Made by a program: the position numbers and the translations under genes
Origin: Thermodesulfobacteriota bacterium
GTDB taxonomy: Bacteria; Desulfobacterota; Desulfobacteria; Desulfobacterales; C00003060
Reading direction: 5' to 3'
Assembly (NCBI GenBank): GCA_034189385.1
Contig: JAXHVD010000005.1
Span: forward strand, 64,001-128,000
Length of the DNA stretch: 64,000 nucleotides
Part shown: in pieces, positions 1,702-14,653 of the stretch
How the letters are laid out: each line of letters begins with the position of its first letter
Numbering within the stretch: position 1 is the stretch's first letter
The notes under the pieces: generated by a model
What the model saw: only the letters and a program-made list of their open reading frames with translations
What the model was told of the DNA's origin: nothing
The model's database searches: none

Positions 1702-3003
1702 CTAATGACTGTGCTCGTTATTTCCGACAGACAACTTATATGGTGAATCCCAGGCCATGGCCTCCAGACGCTGGATGCGCTCTGCAAGGGGTGGATGGGA
1801 ATAATAGAACCATGCATAAAGGGGGTGCGGATAGAGATTTGAAAGATTGTCACTGGCCAACCGCTTCAGGGCACTGATCAGGTCAGCAGGCTGCTTTAAC
1901 AATTGAGCGGCATAGGAATCAGCCTCTCTTTCAAACCGCCTGGAAATAGCAGCGCCTAAGGGCCCGAAGAATTGGCCCACAGCCTCCCAAAGCACGCCCA
2001 CAAGAAAAAGCCCTACATAGGAAACGCCGTGATCAAACCCAAATGTCTGGTACAGGGTGGGCCATGTCAGCAGCCTTGAAGCTGTGTAGAACAAAAGGAG
2101 TGAGACAAGGCTCACGAAGAACAGGTTTTTATGGAGGTGCCTTTTTTTCCAGTGTCCCACTTCATGGGCAAGAATAGCCACGATCTCATCGTGACTGTGG
2201 GAGGTAAGGAGGGTATCAAAGAGCACAATCCGCTTGGCCTTTCCCAAACCGGTGAAGTAGGCATTGGTGTGCCGACTGCGTTTGCCTGCGTCCATCTTAA
2301 AGACACCTTCGACTGCCAGGCCACCCCGCTCCATGGTCCGTTTTACCTGCTCTTCCAAGGCTTTGTCCTCCAGGGGAAGAAACTTGTTGAACCAAGGGGC
2401 AATGAGGGTCGGATAAAGGACAAGCAACAGGAGTTGAAAGCCGAAGAAGACCAACCAGGCCCAGAGCCACCAGAGGCTTCCGCCATGCTCCACGAGAAGG
2501 AGGACGGAGCCCAGCAAAATGCCGCCAATGATGGCGCCTACCACGACAGCCTTCAAAATGTCCGTAACCCATGTCTTGAACGTTGATGTGTTAAAGCCAT
2601 AGCGTTGTTCAATCACAAAAGTTTTATAGTAATTGAAAGGCAGGGAGAATACCCCTTGGACCACGGCAAGTGTGGCAAAGAAGATCATGGCGGAAGCAAG
2701 GACACCAAAGCCAAAGGTCTCCACCAGTTTGACAAACCAGGGAAGGAGACCGGAGAGAATAACAAAAAGAAAAAGGGCGCTGGTGATCCACGAGGTGAAT
2801 AGATCAAACTGCTCATTGTCAACGGTGTAGTCTGTTATGATCCTCAATTTGTCGCCATCGATGTAGCCCTTGAAAAGATCGGGCACCCTATGGCCATGGT
2901 GTTTAAAATGGCCCATATTCATCTTCGTCAAGACGGACTCAGTCGCCACGCCGGTCAAGAAAAGAACAAGATAGACTATGAGAAGTGGACTTATGGAGAT
3001 CAT
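1702..3003 (-). CDS. M48 family (Ste24-like) membrane zinc metallopeptidase
   Basis: HEVGH zinc motif, NAYFTG, SRRFEREAD, SHPPLAERI; multiple TM helices. Confidence 0.92.
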   Translation of the reverse strand: MISISPLLIVYLVLFLTGVATESVLTKMNMGHFKHHGHRVPDLFKGYIDGDKLRIITDYTVDNEQFDLFTSWITSALFLFVILSGLLPWFVKLVETFGFGVLASAMIFFATLAVVQGVFSLPFNYYKTFVIEQRYGFNTSTFKTWVTDILKAVVVGAIIGGILLGSVLLLVEHGGSLWWLWAWLVFFGFQLLLLVLYPTLIAPWFNKFLPLEDKALEEQVKRTMERGGLAVEGVFKMDAGKRSRHTNAYFTGLGKAKRIVLFDTLLTSHSHDEIVAILAHEVGHWKKRHLHKNLFFVSLVSLLLFYTASRLLTWPTLYQTFGFDHGVSYVGLFLVGVLWEAVGQFFGPLGAAISRRFEREADSYAAQLLKQPADLISALKRLASDNLSNLYPHPLYAWFYYSHPPLAERIQRLEAMAWDSPYKLSVGNNEHSH

Positions 3004-3818
3004 GTTTCGTTATTCCATACCTGTTTTTTACCTGCCCCTTTTCGGTGGCGTTTCGTGGCAGGGCGCTGGCGCAACAGGATATAGGTGGCCCCCGCACCCC
3101 CGTCGCATGCTCTGGCGCTGGTAAAAGCGATGACCCACTTCCGCCATGGGCCCGACGTGAGCCACTCCTTTACCTTGGCCTTTAAGACAGGCTCTTTAGG
3201 GGAAGAAAGGCCGCGGCCGTGAACGATCAGAACCGCCCTTTTTCCTGTGAGCAGGGCTTCCTTGAGAAAGCCCTCAAAGGCTTCGAGGGCCTCCTCCACC
3301 CCAAGGCCATGGAGGTCAAGGTGTTCCTGGATGGAGAAATCACCTTGATGCAATCGTTTAGCGATTTCAGGGCGTACGCCGTATCCCACGCCTTCCATGT
3401 ACTCTGCTGTGTCAGAGACAATAAAGCCCTCCCCATCTCTTATCAGATCCTCCAGCAAGGCTAGGGCTTCGGCTTCTGGATCCTTTTCTTCCATCTTCGG
3501 ACGGGCGGGCTGGAGTTCATGCAGGTGACTGGCCTCATGGACCATGGGTACAACGTCTGCCATGAGCTCTCGAAAAAGCTGTGCTTCCTCATCAGCATTC
3601 AACGGACTGTTATCTTCTTCTTTTGTTACAGGCTGTTCCTTGGGCTCAGAAACCACCGGAAAGGACTTTTCCTCAAGGAGGTCCTTGAGATTCTCAAAGG
3701 GTCTATAGGTGCCAGAGGCCTTAGAAGATTTCATGGATGCTTGTTCCAGCAAGGGGCCTGTGCCCACCGTCAGACTCCCTTCTCGGGTTGGAAGAGAAGG
3801 CCCCTGATGCTTTGACAA
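3000..3818 (-). CDS. Smr domain protein (true start may be ATG at 3734)
   Basis: LDLHG, VHGRG and GGAGATYILL Smr motifs. Confidence 0.88.
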   Translation of the reverse strand: MSKHQGPSLPTREGSLTVGTGPLLEQASMKSSKASGTYRPFENLKDLLEEKSFPVVSEPKEQPVTKEEDNSPLNADEEAQLFRELMADVVPMVHEASHLHELQPARPKMEEKDPEAEALALLEDLIRDGEGFIVSDTAEYMEGVGYGVRPEIAKRLHQGDFSIQEHLDLHGLGVEEALEAFEGFLKEALLTGKRAVLIVHGRGLSSPKEPVLKAKVKEWLTSGPWRKWVIAFTSARACDGGAGATYILLRQRPATKRHRKGAGKKQVWNNET

Positions 3819-3943: not shown

Positions 3944-4135
3944 ATGAAAGTCACCTGTGATCAATGCCAGTGCGACATGAAGATAACCTCTTCTTACAGG
4001 TACCATTGTCCAGAATGCAAAAACGAGATCGAGATGGCCTACGTTCAAGAGATGAACAAGAAGTACTGGGATGAACACAAAAAGAACATGGAGTGGGTGA
4101 AAATCAAGGGCACCGAGATCATCATGGTAGAATAG
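3944..4135 (+). CDS. Small zinc-ribbon protein
   Basis: CDQC and CPEC pairs; GGAGG RBS upstream. Confidence 0.6.
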   Translation: MKVTCDQCQCDMKITSSYRYHCPECKNEIEMAYVQEMNKKYWDEHKKNMEWVKIKGTEIIMVE

Positions 4136-4216
4136 CCAGCCGTTGGTTGTCCAGGAAGTGCCGATTTAGAGCGTTCTGGAGTGTGTGATTCCGTCTTGGG
4201 TCAAGCGTTACAGAGC

Positions 4217-4316
4217 GGAAAGCTCAAGGCTCAAAGCTGAAAGGCCAGGAAGTTCTTTTAAGAAAACCCCTTGATTGTTTTGCCCTTGAGCCTTCAGCTT
4301 GTGCCTTTCAGCTTCC
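4217..4316. repeat. Imperfect inverted repeat built from ~7-nt RGCTSAA units; possible bidirectional terminator
   Basis: aagctcaaggctcaaagctgaaaggc mirrored by ttgagccttcagcttgtgcctttcagctt between convergent genes. Confidence 0.55.
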
Positions 4317-4317
4317 T

Positions 4318-5235
4318 CTATCGTGTTTTATAGGCGAGAGACCGGAGTTTCTCGTAGCCAAAAAGCTCGTCTCTCACCATAGGGCTTTCCTTTAGTTCCA
4401 CTTCAAAGGCCTTCTCAAAAGCCCCTATCGCCGTCTCCTTGACCTGATCCCATGGCGGTCTCTTTCCTGTTTCCTGCTCTACAGACGTAAGTGGCTCTAC
4501 CACTTTGTCCCGCACCTCTGGTGGCACCCATACGATGCGCAAAAAGTCTCTGGTATCCAGGGGGGCCAAGAAGGTCAGGGCATTTACTAGCGCTATACCC
4601 TCAACCTCTGAGATGACGAAAGTGGCGATTTTGTCTCCCCGTACCCGAATGCTTCCCCGGTGCTTGTACCAGGCCTCTTTGACACCCAGATCCCTTACGA
4701 TTTCCAGCAAGACATGTCCGATCTTGTTGTAAGCCCCATCAATGTCATCCACGAGGTCCCCTGGGAGGATCAGTTGGATGAAAGCCGTGCTTTGTGGGTG
4801 GCCAAAGACCAGATTGCGCTCCCCAGTCAAGATGACCTGCTCCAAATCGGGTAGCTCCGGTCGAACCTCATTGATCATGGGGGCAAAGTTGGTCAAGGCA
4901 ACGAGGACTTTAGCACCAGAGTCCTTGAGGATGTGGAGGATCTCTCCGCCCTTGTAAAGGGTGTTGAAGGGCACGGCCACGGCCCCAAGTTTCAGCGTAC
5001 CTACCAAGGTGTACACAAACTCAGGGATGTTCGGAAGCATGATCGCCACCCTGTCCCCCTTTGCCACCCCCACCCCTTGGAGTCCGTTGGCCACGCGATT
5101 GGCCCTAAGGTTCAATTCCCCATAGGTGATGGGCTCTCCTTCAAACTGGAGAGCCACCGAGTCGGGACTGGACGAAGCCCATCTTTCAATGGACTGAACC
5201 AATCCTCGATTATTTTCGTTCAATTCTCCGCTCAT
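4318..5235 (-). CDS. Chimeric protein: acyl-CoA ligase N-terminal part fused to lipoate-protein ligase (LplA)-like C-half
   Basis: Residues to ~147 match the FadD N-terminus (TYGELNLRANRVANGL, GDRVAIMLPN, LGAVAVPFN); the rest resembles the LplA C-half (IRVRGDKIA, TSVEQETG). Confidence 0.75.
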   Translation of the reverse strand: MSGELNENNRGLVQSIERWASSSPDSVALQFEGEPITYGELNLRANRVANGLQGVGVAKGDRVAIMLPNIPEFVYTLVGTLKLGAVAVPFNTLYKGGEILHILKDSGAKVLVALTNFAPMINEVRPELPDLEQVILTGERNLVFGHPQSTAFIQLILPGDLVDDIDGAYNKIGHVLLEIVRDLGVKEAWYKHRGSIRVRGDKIATFVISEVEGIALVNALTFLAPLDTRDFLRIVWVPPEVRDKVVEPLTSVEQETGKRPPWDQVKETAIGAFEKAFEVELKESPMVRDELFGYEKLRSLAYKTR

Positions 5236-6634
5236 CCTGATAGTCTTCCGCAAGCTCCTTCTTAAGAACCTTCCCCGTCACACTCATGGGTAAGACCTTC
5301 CTAAAACAGATCTCATCGGGCACCTTGAAGCTTGACAGGGCCTCCTTGCAGTGGTCCATGACCTCTTTTGCTGTAAGCTCTCCCTTGGCTGTGACAAAGG
5401 CAACGATTTCCTCACGCTCCCCTTTTTTTCTGCCAATGACGGCGGCCTCCTTTATGGCCGGATGGCTCGACAGGACCTCTTCCACCTCCCTGGGGGAAAT
5501 GTTAAAACCTCCCTTAATGATGATTTCTTTCTTACGATCAGTAACATAGAAGTAGCCATCGTCATCCCGATATCCGATATCGCCGGTGAGAAACCAGCCC
5601 TCCCTAAAGGCCTCTTTCGTATCCTCTGGAAGACGGAAGTAGCCCGGCGTGACGCCATCTCCCCTTACTGCAATCTCTCCCTGCTTCCCCGAGGGAAGTC
5701 CTTTGCCGTCTGGGTCAAGGATATCCATTTCGAATCCGGGAAGGGGGAGGCCAATGGAGCCAGCCTTGCAGATGCCATCTGGAGGATTGGCGCAGCATGC
5801 TGCCACGGTTTCCGTCAAGCCATATCCCTCAAGCAGCTGAGCGCCCGAACAGTCCTCAAAGGTTTGGATCATCTCCTTGGGCAATGGGGCCGCCCCTGAC
5901 ACACAGATTCGGATGCTTCTAGGCAGCTGCACCTTTTTTCGTTCCAGGAGGGTGAGAAGATGGACATACATAGTGGGAATGGCGACCATGAGGGTGGGAT
6001 GATGATCCATAATAGTCTTCAGCAAGTTGGCGGGACTATACTGTGGAACAAGGATCACAGTGCCCCCGTGAATCAGACCCAGATGGAGCACATTTGAAAG
6101 GCCGAAAACATGAAAAAAAGGCAACACGCCGATCACCTTATCCTTGGGCGTGCAATCGAGCACATGTTCCGTAGACTTGCCTTCGGAAACAAAATTCTTG
6201 TGGGTCAACTGCACCCCCTTGGGCCGACCCGTTGTACCGGAAGTGTATAGGATGCAGGCCAGATCTTCCGGCTCAGTGGCAACGGAGACGAATGCGTCGT
6301 CTTCCTGTAACATCATTTCTTCAAAGTTGATGGTTTCTGCCGGCCGCAAGCTGGCTCTGCCAGACCTGGGTTGAAAGGCCACGTCCACGTCGTGCTCTGA
6401 TGCGGCCTGGAAATCCACTGCTACGTCCGCCCCTGCCAATATCCCTTTCTTAGAGAGGCCCTGAATGACAAGGGTGCCCCCTGAAGCCATGGATGAAAGG
6501 AGGTAGCGTCCGGCGATCTGGCCCTCTACAACAGCGCCTGGCAAGGCCATCACATCTGCTATGTCAGCTTGCGGCTTAAAGATAAGGCGCCACTGCTCTT
6601 TACGCTTTTTTCGAGAGAAAATCTTCCACTTCAT
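5210..6634 (-). CDS. Chimeric protein: LplA-like N-half fused to acyl-CoA ligase catalytic and C-terminal part
   Basis: YTSGTTGRPKG, GYGLTET, TGD and GKVLK adenylation motifs; the first ~100 aa (WRLI...VMAL...VDVAFQPRSGRA) resemble the LplA N-terminus rather than FadD. Confidence 0.8.
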   Translation of the reverse strand: MKWKIFSRKKRKEQWRLIFKPQADIADVMALPGAVVEGQIAGRYLLSSMASGGTLVIQGLSKKGILAGADVAVDFQAASEHDVDVAFQPRSGRASLRPAETINFEEMMLQEDDAFVSVATEPEDLACILYTSGTTGRPKGVQLTHKNFVSEGKSTEHVLDCTPKDKVIGVLPFFHVFGLSNVLHLGLIHGGTVILVPQYSPANLLKTIMDHHPTLMVAIPTMYVHLLTLLERKKVQLPRSIRICVSGAAPLPKEMIQTFEDCSGAQLLEGYGLTETVAACCANPPDGICKAGSIGLPLPGFEMDILDPDGKGLPSGKQGEIAVRGDGVTPGYFRLPEDTKEAFREGWFLTGDIGYRDDDGYFYVTDRKKEIIIKGGFNISPREVEEVLSSHPAIKEAAVIGRKKGEREEIVAFVTAKGELTAKEVMDHCKEALSSFKVPDEICFRKVLPMSVTGKVLKKELAEDYQDERRIERK

Positions 6635-8102
6635 CAAAAAACACCCGAATCACTTTTTCGCTGGGCCGGCTGGTGAGCAGGCTGATAACCACAAAGAGTA
6701 TGAGATTCACCAAAATGGTCGGAATGGCAGGCGGCAGGCCAAGCAGCAGCGGCTTGTGGATGAACCCTGCGACCAGATAGACAGATCCCGCAACCGTGCC
6801 TGCTAATGCCCCCTTCTTGGTGGCCCTTTTCCAGAGTATCCCCCCGACGAGAGCTGGCCCCCACTGCGCAAAACCAGGTATGGCAAGGTCGAGCAAGTAA
6901 CGGGCCAGTTCAACAGGGTACCAGAAGGCAATGCCCATGCTCATGAGGAGAATGGCAATGACCGACAGCTTCGTCGTTCTTATAAGGAACTGGTCCCTAC
7001 CCCTTGGAACGAAGACACCGTGGATAATGTCCCGGGCCACGATGATGCTGGCCGTCATGAGCTGGACTGCAGCCGTGGATATGGCTGCTGCAATGACTCC
7101 CATAAGCACAAAGGTTGAAAACCAGGGAGGCAGATAAGAGGTGACAATGGTCTGTACGATATTGTCTGCGGCCTTGCCTGACACCGGTGGCACGAGACTG
7201 CCTGGCATATGACTGATGGCTGGGGCTACCACAGCGCCCCAGATAAAAGGGATGGTGTAAAAGAGCATGCCTGCCACAATGAGGGCCAGGGCTGGCATCC
7301 ACTTGAATATGGTTTTGTCCTGGGCCGTCATGGTGCTGACAACGATGTGGGGCCAGGTAAAAGCCAATATTCCAAGCATGAACACAATACAGGTTACGTG
7401 GGGGAGGAATTTTTCCTGGGGGCCTGGTGTGAAGAGAAGGGCAGGTTGTTTTGCCTGAAGAATGGACACGGCTTCTGATAGCCCTCCAGGAAAGACCTTG
7501 ACGACGACAAAGACCAGAGATCCGAGAAAGGCAAGGGTGTAGAGGAGGCCAAGAATCACATTGACCCACGCCGTGATGCGCATGCCGCCCAGCAAAACGA
7601 TGAGAATGAGAAGCAAGGAGATATAGAGAATGCCCACAAAAGGAGGAAAGCCCAGCAGGGCTTTCAGTCCAAGGCCTACGCCCAGAGACTGATCAGCGAT
7701 GTAGGGCACAACAGAACCAAGGAGCACCAGGGATAGAAGAAGTCTTAAGGCAGGAGATTCGTACCTGGCGGAAAGGGCCTCAATGGGGGATAGAAACCGA
7801 TTTAATCGGCAAACGGCCCAAAGGCGCGGGCCGATAAACATGTATAAAACGACGAACCCTGCCACGCAGCCCCATATAAAATAGACGAACCCAGGCCCAT
7901 GGCGATAGAGGATGCTGGGATAGGCATAGAAGGTCCACACACTGGATATGGCAAAGAGGGCAAAGAAGAACATGACTGCAATGCCGATACCCCTGCCCGC
8001 GAGCATGTAGTCTTCTGCGGTCTTGGCCGAGACCTTGTATCCATAAACGGCCAAGAGCAAGACCAGCAATCCAAAGGCAGCCAAAATGAAGACCGTCATC
8101 AT
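6600..8102 (-). CDS. Sodium:solute symporter family protein
   Basis: EDYMLAGR, GGMR, AAAISTA motifs; ~13 TM helices. Confidence 0.9.
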   Translation of the reverse strand: MMTVFILAAFGLLVLLLAVYGYKVSAKTAEDYMLAGRGIGIAVMFFFALFAISSVWTFYAYPSILYRHGPGFVYFIWGCVAGFVVLYMFIGPRLWAVCRLNRFLSPIEALSARYESPALRLLLSLVLLGSVVPYIADQSLGVGLGLKALLGFPPFVGILYISLLLILIVLLGGMRITAWVNVILGLLYTLAFLGSLVFVVVKVFPGGLSEAVSILQAKQPALLFTPGPQEKFLPHVTCIVFMLGILAFTWPHIVVSTMTAQDKTIFKWMPALALIVAGMLFYTIPFIWGAVVAPAISHMPGSLVPPVSGKAADNIVQTIVTSYLPPWFSTFVLMGVIAAAISTAAVQLMTASIIVARDIIHGVFVPRGRDQFLIRTTKLSVIAILLMSMGIAFWYPVELARYLLDLAIPGFAQWGPALVGGILWKRATKKGALAGTVAGSVYLVAGFIHKPLLLGLPPAIPTILVNLILFVVISLLTSRPSEKVIRVFFDEVEDFLSKKA

Positions 8103-8141
8103 ACCTCCTCTTTCACCCTGAATCCCTGTCCGTCCTCAGAA

Positions 8142-8354
8142 TCAACGAAAGGGCCAATACTTAAAGAAATAAACCAGATATGCACAAAGCCAAATAAGCA
8201 GGAAAACGATGCCCGCTGCAAATGGCAGGCTAATCCACCCCATGACAATGATTGGTTTGGAGAACAAGGGGGTGACTGCTAAAAGCCCTGCGACATCCAG
8301 GAATAGAACCAGCAGGAAGATCCGACCTGCCCGGTGTGAAAAGGCCTCTCTCAC
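8142..8354 (-). CDS. Small 2-TM symporter-associated membrane protein
   Basis: Two hydrophobic helices immediately upstream of an SSS transporter; GGAGG-like RBS before the GTG start. Confidence 0.65.
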   Translation of the reverse strand: MREAFSHRAGRIFLLVLFLDVAGLLAVTPLFSKPIIVMGWISLPFAAGIVFLLIWLCAYLVYFFKYWPFR

Positions 8355-8642
8355 GTTGCCCTCCTTGACACACGAGATGCATGGGTTAGTTGCCCAAAGG
8401 ACGTTCGATTACATACTCTGGATGGGGGTCACATATCAAGCTAAAACCGTACACCAATGGGGCCGTGACCGAGCCCTTTTTCAGAGCCTTTGTTGGTAAG
8501 GTTTTGGGGCAGATATACTGGCAAAAAACATCTTCATGTCATGCCCCACAAAGAGATTCTTGGTTCGGAAGGTGGGGAAGAAAACAGATACTGACGGGCG
8601 TCGAGGGTGTCGGGCGGCGAGATCGCTTCACAGAAGGGCTTT

Positions 8643-9056
8643 TCAGAAAGCTGTCATTCTTGACGGTTTCTGGATGCCCCCAGCCACGTATGTTTGTACG
8701 ATGTTAAACAGATCCTTGAGATTGAAGGGCTTGGCCAAAAAAGAGTCCGCACCCAACTCCTTGGCGGACTTTTCATTAGAGGGGTCGGCTGACATGATAA
8801 TACATATCTTGCGTGGGTACTTCTTCTTTATTTTGGACAAAAGCTCAAATCCATTCATCTTGGGCATGTCTACGTCAGCTACTACAATGTCCGCCCTACC
8901 GTGACTGGCCAGATAGTTCCATGCTTCCACGCCATTCTCAAAGGACAAGACATTTCTGTTCACGCAATACATGAACACATTGACCACAAGCTCTCTAATG
9001 AGCTTATTGTCCTCAACCACAGCGATGGTGACATTCGGTATGATGGCCCACCTCAC
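8643..9056 (-). CDS. Stand-alone response regulator receiver protein
   Basis: VEDN, DVDMPKMNG, KPF receiver motifs. Confidence 0.9.
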   Translation of the reverse strand: MRWAIIPNVTIAVVEDNKLIRELVVNVFMYCVNRNVLSFENGVEAWNYLASHGRADIVVADVDMPKMNGFELLSKIKKKYPRKICIIMSADPSNEKSAKELGADSFLAKPFNLKDLFNIVQTYVAGGIQKPSRMTAF

Positions 9057-9550
9057 GCTACTTTCATGAACTTCATATCGTATGCCTGGCTGTCAAACGT
9101 GATGGCTTCACATATATAATTCAGATTATCCTCCAAGGCTTGCCGCCTGAATTCCCCCATGGGGTATCCCTCGGCAAAGGCCTTCGCCATCACGGCAAGT
9201 AGCTCGACTCTCAGGTGAAATACATGATCTTGATCCATCTCCTCCTTTGATTCAAGGCCTGCCATGTGCTCTTTAACATATTTGGCCACATGCTCAGCAT
9301 TTTCAATGACGGCTTCTTTTCTAAACTCGCCAAGAGGGTAGCCTTTCAGGTAACCCTTTGACATGATAATAAGTAGTTGTAATTTTGCCAGGGAAATGTC
9401 CTTTTCAGACATCTCCCCCATTTCTGCCGGACTCGACCCAAATCTCAGCATAATATGCCCCTTTGCTTGGAGGTCCTGAGCAAGACCAGCTACTGAGGCC
9501 CCATCTCTCAACATAATTGCGACACTATTCCTTAACCTATCGCTATTCAC
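9053..9550 (-). CDS. Hypothetical protein with an internal duplication
   Basis: Two copies of a ~35-aa unit containing GYP(L/M)GEFR; 4-nt overlap with the receiver gene. Confidence 0.7.
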   Translation of the reverse strand: MNSDRLRNSVAIMLRDGASVAGLAQDLQAKGHIMLRFGSSPAEMGEMSEKDISLAKLQLLIIMSKGYLKGYPLGEFRKEAVIENAEHVAKYVKEHMAGLESKEEMDQDHVFHLRVELLAVMAKAFAEGYPMGEFRRQALEDNLNYICEAITFDSQAYDMKFMKVA

Positions 9551-9797
9551 ATGTCAACAAGCTATTGGCTCGTGCCTCCAAAAAAATGTATTGAGGCGAC
9601 ATAGTTATGCGACTTTTTCGTGAGCCGGACAAGACCTAACATCGCAACCCCTTGTGTGTGCATGTGCCGGAGGGTCTCATATGGGGTGGAAAAAGCCTCT
9701 TGCTTTGCCGAGAGGCATTCTTTGCAGCGGAACGGAGGAGTTCGGTCCAAGGGACCCACTTGAGGGGAAAAAGCCTTCAACGGTTCCATGACGTCCC

Positions 9798-11102
9798 TTA
9801 GGGTCCAAATTTCTCTCTTGGGGGGTTGAAATATCCGAATTTCAGCGTGGGAAAAGCCTTTCGCACCCTTTCCATGACGGTGTGCATCCCCATCAGTTGT
9901 GCTTCGGGGCTACCGTCGCCCATAATTTGCCAGTAGCGCACCGGGTCAAAATTCAGGTTCCGCCATTGGATCATCTGGACGGGATGGTTATCCAGAAAAG
10001 ACAGAAAAGCGGCCATTTCCTCCTTGGAATCGGTGAACCCAGGCAGGTTCAGATAGTTCATGGAAACAAATTTGCCTTTATGTCCGGCCAAATCGATGCT
10101 TGCAACCACATCCTCGAAGCTGTAGCCTTTTGGTCGGAAATAGGCTTCATAGAACCGTTTCCTGACGCTGTTCATGCTTACCCGAATGGCGTCTAGGCCT
10201 GCCTCAAAGAGTCTCTCCAGCACAGACGGAAGGCTGGCATTGGTATTCATATTGATGGTACCCCGTTGAGTGGCCTGTCGAATAAGCCGAATGGCGGGTT
10301 CAATCACCTTTGCGGCCAGTAGAGGCTCCCCCTCACATCCTTGACCGAAACTGACCACAGGTCTTTTGGTATGGCTGATATGATGCATGGCAATCTGTGC
10401 AATCTCGTCCGGCGTAGGAGTGAAATCAATCCGCTTTTGGGTACTTGGAATGTCGCTCTCTCGCTGCAGGGAAAGACACCCGTGACATTTGGCATTGCAT
10501 TTCACCGACGTGGGTAGAGGGCCTTCACAGCGTTCCAGAAAGAAGTTCTTGGCTGCGGGACAGCCGTAAGTGAGGGCGCAGGTCTCAAGATGGGCCCTCA
10601 GTCGATTTGAAGGCATGGTACGACGAAGGGAGGCGATTCCCTCGACGATCTTGTCATGGGGCATAAGCCGCAGGTCCTGGCGTCTTTCCCGGTCCACCCG
10701 AATGGCTGCCACTCGAAATCTTCCCTTAAGCCAGCCAATAGCACCGTAAGAAAAAAGGGGGAGAGGGGCGGGATCGGGCTGCTCTGCATAGGCGCTTACA
10801 AGAGAGATAGTGTAGCCCGGGGCGTTAAAGGCTGCTACGGGATAGACCGGCTCGCCTGGAGCATGGGGATTATCAGTGAGGACTTCGAATGTCTTGGCTG
10901 CCATGTTATAGACAATAGGCCTTCTATCCGGCAGGAACAGGTGTTCGCCTCCAAAGGGCATGTTAATAGTGTCCATCTCCGTAAGGGGAACCAATGTGGA
11001 ACCAGCCATCCCTACGGCAGCGTAGTGATCGAGATCAAAGAATTCTCCTTCCCTGTTTGCTACAAGGGCCTTTATGAACTGTCTCCGTTGTCTAGACATC
11101 AC
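9798..11102 (-). CDS. Radical SAM protein of unknown function
   Basis: CNAKCHGC motif, GQGCEGEP, NTNAS. Confidence 0.88.
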   Translation of the reverse strand: MMSRQRRQFIKALVANREGEFFDLDHYAAVGMAGSTLVPLTEMDTINMPFGGEHLFLPDRRPIVYNMAAKTFEVLTDNPHAPGEPVYPVAAFNAPGYTISLVSAYAEQPDPAPLPLFSYGAIGWLKGRFRVAAIRVDRERRQDLRLMPHDKIVEGIASLRRTMPSNRLRAHLETCALTYGCPAAKNFFLERCEGPLPTSVKCNAKCHGCLSLQRESDIPSTQKRIDFTPTPDEIAQIAMHHISHTKRPVVSFGQGCEGEPLLAAKVIEPAIRLIRQATQRGTINMNTNASLPSVLERLFEAGLDAIRVSMNSVRKRFYEAYFRPKGYSFEDVVASIDLAGHKGKFVSMNYLNLPGFTDSKEEMAAFLSFLDNHPVQMIQWRNLNFDPVRYWQIMGDGSPEAQLMGMHTVMERVRKAFPTLKFGYFNPPREKFGP

Positions 11103-12463: not shown

Positions 12464-14653
12464 TCATGCCAATCCAATGATCTTGCCGCCTTGATAGATC
12501 AAAAAGGCAACGACCCAGGCCAGAACGGTGCTGTAACCGATGCTGAAGAAGGTCCACTTCCAGGAATTCGTTTCCCGTCTGATGACTGCCACAGTGGCGA
12601 GGCAGGGGACATAGATGAGCACAAAGGCCATCATGGCATAGGCGGAAAGGGCCGTCATCCCAGATTTCTTAAGGGCTCCTTTCAAGGCCTCATTTCTCTC
12701 GGTCCCATCAGCCCCGACGGCATAGAGAACGCCCATGGTGCTTACCACAATCTCCTTGGCAACAAAACCGGAGATGACTGCCACACTGCCACGCCAGTCC
12801 ATGCCAATAGGAGCAAAGATCGGGGCCAAGGCTTTTCCTAGATAGCCCATGTAGGATTTTTCCACCTTCTCTCTGGCCTTCTGCGCTTCCACGGCGGAGA
12901 TGGCTTTATCCCGTTGCCGCATGAGTGCTTCACCGCTATTCCCCTGCAATTGGAGGATCTGAGTCTCATACTTGGCATGGACGGTTGCTATCTCCGATTC
13001 GTAGTCCCTTGAGTACTCAATGTCCTGTGGAAAGGCACTCAAGAACCACACAACAACCGACCCGATTAGGATCACGCCTCCCATTTTCTTTAGAAAAATC
13101 TTGCTGCGATCCCACATATGGATAAGCAGTCCTTTAAACATGGGGGCCCGATACGGTGGAAGTTCCATGACAAAGGGAGCCACTTTACCTCTGAGTACGG
13201 TGGATCGAAACAGACGCCCCACAAGAATCGCCAGCACGATGCCCAAGGCGTAGATGGAAAAAATAGCGTTGCCGGCCTTGACTCCAAAAAAAGTACCGGC
13301 CAGAAGGATATACACGGGTAATCTAGCAGAACACGACATCAGGGGATTGATTAGAATCGTCAATATACGATCCTTTTCGCTTTCCAAGGTCCTGGTGGCC
13401 ATGATGGCTGGGGCATTGCAGCCGAAACCCATGAGCAAGGGGATGAAGGACTTGCCATGGAGCCCGATGAGGTGCATGACCTTGTCCATTAAGAAGGCAG
13501 CCCGAGCCATATAGCCGGTATCCTCAAACAGGGCAATGCAGAAGAAAAGGATCAGGATGTTCGGCAAGAATATGATGACACTTCCCACGCCGGCAATGAT
13601 GCCGTCTACGATCAGATCGTGCAGGAGGCCCTGTGGCAGACGCCCTCCGATGGCTCCGCCCAGCCAGCCCACGCCTGAATCTATCCAGCCCATGGGATAG
13701 GTCCCCAGTGAGAAGGTGATCTGGAACATGGCCCAAATGAAGAAGACAAAGATAGGAAGCCCCAGCAGTCGGTTGGTCAAGATCTGGTCTACTTGCCGGG
13801 AAATGTCTATACGTCTTCCCGATACTGTCTTTAAGGCCTCTTTCACAATACCGGCGATAAAACCGTACCGGTGGTCTGTCATGACAATCTCGGGTTCCTC
13901 ATCAAAGAATTGGCGGAGCCTCTCCCGTTTCTGCTCCGCCTCACAGAGGATAGCCTCTCCTTCTGGGCTGGCCGCCTGAAGGGTCCTTTCTTGAACGATC
14001 TTGTCCTTTTCAAGGAGCTTCACGGCAATCCAGCGAACACTGTGAGGAAGCCTTTTACCCATTTTGTCCTTTATGAATGTGGACAATTCCCCAATGGTCT
14101 TTTCAATGTCTTTGCCGTAATAAACACGGCGGGTGCGAGGAAGCTCTATATCCGTTTCTGCCACGGCGATGATGGCCTTGAGGAGTTGATCTGTGCCTTC
14201 GTTCTTGTTGCCGACCGTGAACACCACCGGCACGTCAAGCAGTTCAGACAGCTTCTCGCCGTCGATCTTGATACCGCGCTGGCGGGCCACATCGGCCATG
14301 TTCAGGACATAGATGACCTTCGTGTCAAGTTCCCGAAGCTGTGTGGCCAGGTAGAGATTGCGCTCCAAGTTCGAGGCGTCAATGATATCAACGACTACGT
14401 CAGGTTTTTCATCCAGGATGAAATCGCGAGCCACGATTTCTTCGATAGAATAGGCGGTAAGGCTGTATGTGCCAGGGAGATCGACAATGGTGAGTTCATA
14501 CCCGTTGGTGCTAAGATGGCCTTCTTTTTTTTCTACAGTGACGCCAGGCCAGTTTCCTACCTTCTGGCGGGTACCTGTGAGATTATTAAATATCGTGCTC
14601 TTGCCCGAGTTGGGATTGCCGGCAAGGGCTACTGTAATGGAGTGGGGGGCCAT
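12464..14653 (-). CDS. feoB: Ferrous iron transport protein B
   Basis: GNPNSGKS, GNWPGVTVE, DLPGTYSL, GFGCN, CSARLP, YVPCLAT. Confidence 0.97.
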   Translation of the reverse strand: MAPHSITVALAGNPNSGKSTIFNNLTGTRQKVGNWPGVTVEKKEGHLSTNGYELTIVDLPGTYSLTAYSIEEIVARDFILDEKPDVVVDIIDASNLERNLYLATQLRELDTKVIYVLNMADVARQRGIKIDGEKLSELLDVPVVFTVGNKNEGTDQLLKAIIAVAETDIELPRTRRVYYGKDIEKTIGELSTFIKDKMGKRLPHSVRWIAVKLLEKDKIVQERTLQAASPEGEAILCEAEQKRERLRQFFDEEPEIVMTDHRYGFIAGIVKEALKTVSGRRIDISRQVDQILTNRLLGLPIFVFFIWAMFQITFSLGTYPMGWIDSGVGWLGGAIGGRLPQGLLHDLIVDGIIAGVGSVIIFLPNILILFFCIALFEDTGYMARAAFLMDKVMHLIGLHGKSFIPLLMGFGCNAPAIMATRTLESEKDRILTILINPLMSCSARLPVYILLAGTFFGVKAGNAIFSIYALGIVLAILVGRLFRSTVLRGKVAPFVMELPPYRAPMFKGLLIHMWDRSKIFLKKMGGVILIGSVVVWFLSAFPQDIEYSRDYESEIATVHAKYETQILQLQGNSGEALMRQRDKAISAVEAQKAREKVEKSYMGYLGKALAPIFAPIGMDWRGSVAVISGFVAKEIVVSTMGVLYAVGADGTERNEALKGALKKSGMTALSAYAMMAFVLIYVPCLATVAVIRRETNSWKWTFFSIGYSTVLAWVVAFLIYQGGKIIGLA

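Follow-up and report, generated by a model that had tools for sequence, protein, structure and literature searches.

Two overlapping genes of a Thermodesulfobacteriota bacterium carry crossed parts of an acyl-CoA ligase and an LplA-like domain

Introduction

What can two overlapping genes encode when each carries one part of an acyl-CoA ligase and one part of a domain resembling the lipoate ligase LplA, with the parts crossed between them? The question is raised by genes A and B (minus strand, 5210..6634 and 4318..5235) in a 64,000-nucleotide stretch, here called the window, taken from contig JAXHVD010000005.1 (positions 64,001 to 128,000) of the metagenome-assembled genome (MAG) of a Thermodesulfobacteriota bacterium (GCA_034189385.1; 64 contigs, 90% complete); coordinates below are window positions. 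The pair had been picked out from the letters alone in an original prediction, whose observation we confirm and whose interpretation is partly supported. Here, we describe the domain composition, conservation, distribution and surroundings of A and B, and propose, as a reading that we hold to be rather probable, that the two proteins form an obligate heterodimeric carboxylate-CoA ligase coupled to uptake, in which the LplA-like module serves as a ligand-binding clasp.

Results

Gene A (5210..6634, (-); 474 residues plus stop) encodes an LplA-like N-terminal part followed by a ligase that runs from just before motif A3 to its C-terminus, and gene B (4318..5235, (-); 305 residues plus stop) encodes a ligase N-terminal fragment followed by an LplA-like C-terminal part, so that LplA-N is joined to ligase-C and ligase-N to LplA-C. 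In the list of open reading frames (ORFs) the genes extend over 5210-6637(-) and 4318-5253(-), with 475 and 311 residues, and conserved ATG codons at 6634 and 5235 set the lengths used here. The genes overlap by 26 nucleotides (5210..5235, (-)), with the TAA of A at 5210-5212, the ATG of B at 5233-5235 and B in the +1 frame relative to A.

The ligase is complete only when the two chains are summed, since the ranges of both PRK06187 and PF00501 are divided between them: NCBIfam PRK06187 is matched at positions 140-526 in A (residues 94-470 of the 475-residue ORF, E 1.5e-108) and at positions 12-139 in B (residues 20-147 of the 311-residue ORF), and Pfam PF00501 at positions 136-384 in A and 2-127 in B. 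The C-terminal mobile domain is present, with PF13193 matched from position 1 to 76 of 76 by A residues 384-456 (E 1.2e-15). B residues 1-141 (4813..5235, (-)), which hold the ANL N-terminal subdomain through motif A2 and end in LEQVILTGERN, also match positions 35-174 of PRK06178, and a Foldseek search with the model of B returned ANL structures only (at least 500, for example 3ivr_B with E 7.3e-10), over residues ~10-140. Together with A residues 100-474 (5213..6337, (-)), they cover ligase model positions 12-526 with no gap and no overlap, and the cut lies between motifs A2 and A3, in the a2-a3 region. Among 72 aligned sequences, the motifs YTSGTTGxPKG, GYGLTE, TGD, DRKK..GG.NISP.E and GK, which we take to be A3, A5, A7, A8 and A10 of the ANL family, are each at least 80-95% conserved; in A, motif A3 (YTSGTTGRPKG) lies at 6215-6247 (-) and the A10 lysine, Lys455, at 5270-5272 (-). 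The closest solved relatives of the ligase part of A are an oxalyl-CoA synthetase (6qjz, 4.6e-68) and a malonyl-CoA synthetase (4fuq, 2.2e-66), and MenE (5buq) is also among the closest of the ligase. No NCBIfam equivalog model is reached by A (363 bits against a cut-off of 476), and the ligase substrate therefore cannot be named. In three of five related genomes the best unsplit match of A and one match of B are the same gene, which would fit a single ligase ancestor without proving one.

The rest of the two proteins corresponds to consecutive portions of the BPL/LplA/LipB catalytic fold: its N-terminal third in A residues 13-95 (6350..6598, (-)), which end in PRSGR, and its C-terminal two thirds in B residues 142-305 (4321..4812, (-)). 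In B, residues 159-279 match positions 77-199 of 200 of Pfam PF21948 (LplA-B_cat; E 7e-6) with 26.5 bits, slightly below the cut-off of 27, which remoter B-type relatives exceed (28.7-34.3 bits). Residues 138-282 of an AlphaFold 2 (AF2) model of B alone, whose mean predicted local distance difference test score (pLDDT) is 76.9, align by VIA-align wide with LipB 2qht_A (Z 12.2, root-mean-square deviation 2.7, 128 aligned, chain residues 78-210 of 210), and the B model aligns with biotin protein ligases at Z 11.2-12.8 (2eay_A 12.8, 6ndl_A 12.6, 1wnl_A 12.3); the LplA-like part of B is visible by VIA-align wide and not by Foldseek. The closest ESM Atlas clusters to this part are LplA-B_cat (score 0.90-0.91), and a PDB sequence search with the C-half alone gave weak LipB matches only (E 0.55).

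Both LplA-like parts are joined to the family by unsplit relatives. A search of 1.84 billion representative proteins with the C-half of B gave 30 matches, none longer than 391 residues, and among them unsplit proteins of 353-391 residues that match LplA-B_cat with E 1e-12 to 1e-36, some with an LplB-type C-domain; the named ones are archaeal (Asgard archaea, Sulfolobaceae) and labelled lipoate--protein ligase family protein. A profile of this unsplit family matches Thermoplasma LplA (2ars, E 2.6e-38) and an LplB subunit (3r07_C, E 5.6e-12). The N-part of A (~95 residues) has no Pfam match, and PDB searches with it, as a single sequence and as a 26-sequence profile, found no LplA-family match (best E 0.18 and 0.49, unrelated proteins). 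By BLASTP, A 13-92 aligns with residues 3-79 of one unsplit relative (P0137; E 2e-11) and B 147-301 with its residues 86-245 (E 1e-21), so the LplA break is complementary too; hhalign of the 26-sequence cross-phylum profile of the A N-part against the unsplit family N-terminus gives a probability of 97.8% (E 1.2e-12, 71 columns). In the alignment the fold breaks directly after the Gly loop, where the A part ends in PRSGR(A/G)(S/G), and B takes it up at LVF..P.ST.F.Q, which in the solved ligase is the strand next after the loop. An AF2 model of A alone has a mean pLDDT of 41, with residues 1-158 all below 50.

Shorter pieces of the same fold also occur on their own. A 166-residue protein (P0121) named lipoate-protein ligase A in its source has the LplA-like C-part only, 61% identical to B 143-305, as do ESM Atlas clusters of 155-163 residues; these could be half domains that stand free, or pieces of genes cut off at contig ends. 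Canonical LplA-B_cat matches occur as adjacent pairs of pieces in two related genomes, at G031:C192:5194-5758 and 13284-13630 and at G005:C204:1727-2232, with model positions 2-114 and 121-199, 20-83 and 84-132, and 2-120 and 114-175, and are either MAG frameshifts or other natural splits of this fold.

The residues of the LplA-like module were counted in the 72 aligned sequences, with the residue numbers of A and B. The RR..GGG ligand loop of the unsplit relatives is not kept in A, where its two arginines correspond to Q88 and P89 in the BLASTP alignment to P0137 and the altered Gly loop PRSGR (6356-6370, (-)) has the consensus PRSGRGG (P89 in 63, R90 in 66, G92 in 70 and R93 in 68 sequences). 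The lysine of the G-x-K-I motif is catalytic in LplA; the corresponding Lys202 of B (4630-4632, (-)), which lines up with K141, invariant in the unsplit family, is kept in 71 of 72. The Asp before this Lys, invariant in the unsplit family, is replaced by Ser at B195 in 53 sequences. Strongly conserved as well are the B junction T-G-x-R-x-L-x-F-x-x-P (T137 68, G138 71, R140 71, L142 60, F144 70 and P147 69), W189, Y190, K191 and H192 of B (65-71; W189, Y190 and H192 67-71), and the stretch P-P-E-x-x-D-K-x-x-E-P-x-T-S (P238 54, P239 64, E240, E247 and P248 71 each, D243 and K244 68 each). No Cys is conserved, the best column reaching 28 of 72 in B 142-305 and 2 of 72 in A 1-99. PF10437 (LplB) has no match in A or in B, which stops right after the catalytic domain, and was not found in the window genome (G000) or in its 24 genus relatives. 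Columns at least 90% identical make up 21% of each LplA-like half and 25% and 37% of the ligase parts.

Search of 41 related genomes, that of the window included, found full-length B as an open frame in 12 of the 40 others at 66-82% identity, 11 of them within the genus (24 relatives), and in all 11 relatives' loci that were fetched a full-length, intact A lies directly upstream. Across the window locus and these 11 relatives, the genes overlap by 26-50 nucleotides and the ATG of B is conserved. Median ratios of nonsynonymous to synonymous substitution rates (dN/dS; 66 pairs, 63-66 usable) are 0.138 for LplA-N, 0.131 for ligase-C, 0.137 for ligase-N and 0.108 for LplA-C; all four segments are under purifying selection, and constraint on the LplA-like part matches that on the ligase.

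In a protein database, B had 876 matches, and the best 120 (279-313 residues, 63-100% identity) are, where they have a name, almost all annotated as AMP-binding protein, acyl-CoA synthetase or long-chain acyl-CoA synthetase. When one genome per species was scanned, 326 stretches were obtained; since the patterns searched for belong to the ligase fragment, only the best 80 were examined and counted, and each of these covers B to its C-terminal part. By submitters' titles, they come from Desulfobacterales, other Thermodesulfobacteriota, Spirochaetota (including the cultured Alkalispirochaeta alkalica DSM 8900, locus L089), Fibrobacterota, WOR-3, Planctomycetota (a Kuenenia MAG), Latescibacterota and Clostridia. 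In 78 of these loci B is directly preceded by a match to A, and the remaining two end at a contig edge; in all 78 the ligase is split over two proteins, and no fused A-B frame was seen among them. The stop of A falls from 201 nucleotides upstream to 67 nucleotides downstream of the first aligned residue of B, and the frame offset between the genes is 0, 1 or 2 across phyla; in eight loci (L061, L064, L071, L074, L080, L081, L090 and L093) A and B share one frame with a single stop between them. A quick maximum-likelihood tree of 72 A proteins separates two groups of 36 rows, both with a support of 100 in the SH-like approximate likelihood ratio test (SH-aLRT), one with 34 rows labelled Spirochaetota and the other mixed. 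Among plasmid records, none of the 10 that match covers at least 80% of B, and they hold ligase fragments only.

The junctions themselves are found beyond this assembly, in contigs from a run of another study (X2 records): record 10 (4446-5503) spans the internal junction of B and the gene boundary, record 12 (4872-5668) spans the gene boundary, and record 14 (5974-6617) spans the internal junction of A.

Some loci stand out. One Alkalispirochaeta sp. chromosome (OZ271854.1) carries two divergent A-B copies (L090 and L092) that belong to different Spirochaetota subclades, which suggests an old duplication, perhaps with different substrates. In the MAG of Deltaproteobacteria bacterium RBG_13_52_11 (L053:5263-7986), a 907-codon frame joins the SSF symporter to A from residue 84, so that A lacks its LplA-like N-part, whereas the LplA-like C-part of B is retained; the frame is either an assembly error or a natural fusion of transporter and ligase in which a deletion occurred. 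In the MAG chromosome CP070817.1 (L055:7393-7986), the last ~147 residues of A precede an intact B and there is no symporter, which looks like a truncated copy of the module.

The predicted complex of A and B reached an ipSAE of 0.90 in three of three runs, where the best of three controls gave 0.00; contact agreement was at least 87% and partner pLDDT at least 83. Solved complexes attain the same mark in 116 of 157 cases, mismatched pairs in 2 of 215. In the model the ligase halves meet in confident contacts (A:126-129 with B:86-88, A:191-195 with B:27-30), as do the two LplA-like halves (A:56 with B:154; A 12-89 with B 150-158, 211-236 and 262-304). The model thus supports, at the level of a prediction, the complementarity of the halves, and both proteins probably must pair to rebuild both folds. 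The contrast between this complex and the model of A alone is only a hint, because two different programs were used.

Much of what had been proposed from the letters alone is therefore borne out. The two reciprocal chimeras and their complementary break points are seen in the PRK06187, PF00501 and PF21948 ranges, the P0137 alignments and hhalign, and both frames are intact, here and in the relatives. The suggestion that both halves match the LplA fold holds through hhalign for the N-part and the alignment to LipB for the C-part, and its RRxxGGG motif is indeed degenerate with the Lys kept. A complementary interface, predicted for A+B, appears in the model for both pairs of halves; the junctions recur in many independent assemblies, and the same two-gene architecture exists in several phyla.

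The pair closes a cassette of four tightly packed minus-strand genes in the window, in the order small hydrophobic ORF (70 residues; 8142..8354, (-)), SSF symporter (a permease of 500 residues; 6600..8102, (-); PF00474, E 9.2e-27), A and B. The symporter stop and the start of A overlap by 35 nucleotides. The small ORF is without a Pfam or NCBIfam match and is probably a small membrane subunit of the symporter. Over 81 loci, many of which are cut upstream, A is directly preceded by a symporter (cluster c2) in 59, and the symporter by a ~72-residue ORF (cluster c3, which does not include the window's 70-residue copy) in 41; no further neighbour occurs in more than 9 of the 81, and no acceptor-like gene is conserved near the cassette in these loci. 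The best NCBIfam matches of the symporter, PutP (2.2e-31) and PanF (1.6e-29), are weak and far below cut-offs.

A canonical lipoylation cluster, made up of GcvH, a full LplA-B_cat (LplA/LipB-family) gene and LipA, is encoded separately in the genome, which has three GcvH-like proteins. Within the genus, a canonical lipoylation gene occurs in 9 of 12 genomes with the cassette and in 5 of 13 without it, counts that are confounded by kinship and incomplete MAGs, and the LplB domain is found in 2 of 41 genomes irrespective of the cassette. The possibility that the chimera replaces a stand-alone LplA-type ligase in salvage finds no support, given the genome's own cluster, the lack of an anticorrelation in the genus and the distribution of the LplB domain.

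Around the cassette, a response-regulator receiver protein (137 residues) and an overlapping 165-residue protein without any family match are encoded just upstream (8643-9550, (-)), a gene pair that is not kept with the cassette in other phyla. On the other side, between gene B and an Smr-domain gene (3000-3818), lies a 63-residue ORF (3944-4135, (+)) that has two Cys-x-x-Cys pairs and matches zinc ribbons weakly (E 0.011). The radical-SAM gene upstream (9798-11102) was examined as a LipS/LipA-like candidate and rejected, having no such match and only weak MoaA-like ones. Riboswitch searches of eight diverse loci found only unrelated tmRNA, tRNA and a distant c-di-GMP aptamer; the latter is a c-di-GMP-I-GGC aptamer in a Desulfobacterales MAG (L031:13403-13480, (+); 65.2 bits, gathering score 59), ~4.5 kb downstream of B and with no evident link to the cassette.

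Discussion

From the conserved symporter and the conserved ANL motifs, we read the cassette as one for uptake and CoA activation of a carboxylate. A and B, co-translated from overlapping genes, would form an obligate heterodimer in which a complete ANL-type AMP-forming carboxylate-CoA ligase is rebuilt from B 1-141 and A 100-474, and a single LplA-like catalytic-domain fold from A 13-95 and B 142-305. With the ligase cut in the a2-a3 region and the LplA fold cut after its ligand loop, each fold would clasp the other, and the cassette would import a carboxylate and activate it to its CoA thioester. The LplA-like module would descend from archaeal-type Lpl(AB) lipoate ligases, with LplB lost and the pocket remodelled yet strongly conserved, and may be a built-in clasp that still binds an acyl group or adenylate rather than a proven protein-lipoylating enzyme. 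The crossed connectivity excludes a plain domain insertion as its origin; we infer that it could have arisen when lplA underwent a single crossover with a ligase gene in circular or tandem form, as the original prediction proposed for a circular one.

Several points weigh against this proposal. Since solved single-chain structures already look like the halves of a split gene, the pass of the complex model reflects likeness and not binding. With A alone modelled so poorly, the assignment of the LplA-like N-part stands on profile evidence through an intermediate family. The PutP and PanF matches of the symporter are too weak to name a substrate, and a riboswitch search of window positions 4000-10000 gave 0 matches at E up to 1. 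Conservation in the pocket (K202, W189/Y190/H192, E240, D243/K244 and PRxGR) exceeds what a mere clasp would need, which makes a catalytic role possible.

Such a role is central to the first of the rival explanations, a two-step acyl-protein or acyl-amine ligase in which the ANL half activates the imported acid to acyl-AMP or acyl-CoA and the LplA-like domain transfers the acyl group to a lysine of an acceptor protein. The domain does descend, by the matches of the unsplit profile to 2ars and 3r07_C, from true Lpl(AB) ligases, its Lys and its PPE..DK..EP.TS loop are conserved from phylum to phylum, the break in the fold falls exactly at a ligand loop that leads directly into the ligase, and the 9 of 12 against 5 of 13 lipoylation genes in the genus are a weak hint in the same direction. 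LplB is lost, and in PMC10332631 that domain is tied to ATP-dependent ligase function: its gain turned transferases into ligases, and its loss repeatedly reversed this, an activated donor then being used, a pattern that leaves the ANL part open as the supplier of the activated acyl group. Yet no acceptor-like gene is conserved near the cassette, both loop arginines and the Asp before the Lys are changed, the lack of a conserved Cys makes a LipB/LipM-type mechanism unlikely, the ligase keeps every feature of a full CoA ligase, including its C-terminal domain and A10 Lys, the genome has its own GcvH, LplA/LipB-family and LipA cluster, and the co-occurrence counts are confounded. For these reasons the idea of the original prediction that an acyl-adenylate is channelled to protein acylation finds no direct support, and we regard the two-step enzyme as unlikely. 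We give similarly little credence to its fuller version, in which the ANL ligase would have taken over the LplB-supported adenylation, the LplA-like domain would hand the activated acid brought in by the transporter to a lysine, and the whole two-step enzyme would have been born in one non-homologous recombination that cut both enzymes and crossed their halves, and kept in several phyla.

At the other extreme, the LplA-like fold might be a ligand-free pseudoenzyme that only holds the split ligase together, as the changed canonical motif residues, the lack of LplB in A and B and the canonical lipoylation genes elsewhere in the genome would allow; but conservation is concentrated at pocket-equivalent positions (K202, WYKH, PRxGR and PPE..DK), the domain is constrained like the ligase (dN/dS 0.11-0.14), and the ligase fragments alone already share a large interface in the complex model, and this explanation too seems improbable to us. 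Frameshifting or read-through into a single chain of LplA-N, permuted ligase and LplA-C could be imagined from the position of B directly after A and from the 8 of 78 loci with one frame and a single stop. It is very improbable: with frame offset and stop position so variable, no conserved recoding site can exist, the ATG of B is conserved in the window locus and its 11 relatives, and no long fused protein is among the 30 matches of the C-half search. An assembly artefact or decaying rearrangement debris, to which we assign next to no probability, is already refuted by the same junctions in 80 independent assemblies, by the other-study contigs that bridge all three junctions and by purifying selection on all four segments. 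The ligand-binding clasp within a heterodimeric CoA ligase stays our preferred explanation.

Compared with known systems, the pair shares all core motifs and the complete C-terminal domain with ANL acyl-CoA synthetases (PRK06187 subfamily; 6qjz, 4fuq and 5buq), but its chain is cut between A2 and A3 over two polypeptides, each with part of a second fold. With archaeal Lpl(AB) (2ars, 3r07_C) it has the catalytic fold, family motifs and ligand-site Lys in common, whereas here the fold is split after the Gly loop, LplB is absent, RR..GGG has become PRxGR(G/A)(G/S) and the Asp before the Lys has become Ser. The E. coli operon acs-yjcH-actP also combines transporter and ligase, and an SSF permease, a small membrane protein and an AMP-forming ligase are likewise encoded together here; the SSF subfamily (ActP models 26.6-38.4 bits) and the ligase subfamily differ, and the ligase is split and interlaced. 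LipB and LipM use a catalytic Cys that forms an acyl-enzyme. Like these octanoyltransferases, the module is a catalytic domain without LplB, but it has no conserved Cys and is split and interlocked with a ligase. Enzymes of the LipM/LipB type arose repeatedly from LplAB by loss of LplB, according to PMC10332631. In the interrupted adenylation domains of nonribosomal peptide synthetases, a foreign domain lies between a2-a3, a6-a7 or a8-a9, so that the same a2-a3 site tolerates a foreign fold and two enzyme folds share one body; there the insert is whole and in one chain, with ligase-N joined to insert-N and insert-C to ligase-C, whereas here the connections are crossed and lie on two proteins (PMC8341866). 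No description of an LplA/ANL chimera was found in the literature, subscription journals lying outside the search.

Both folds are textbook enzymes, and what we found no account of is the reciprocal cut of two unrelated enzymes with their halves crossed onto two polypeptides. The case also calls for caution in annotation, as the second fold goes unnoticed in public records, where B is called 'AMP-binding protein' or 'long-chain acyl-CoA synthetase'. As a cultured carrier exists in Alkalispirochaeta alkalica DSM 8900 (L089), the questions raised here can be tested at the bench. The arrangement would be a natural mutual fragment complementation, in which each fold forms only if the other does, and would mean that one illegitimate recombination can yield a viable, long-lived architecture. 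If the LplA-like module is active, it would represent a new acyl-transfer route coupled to uptake.

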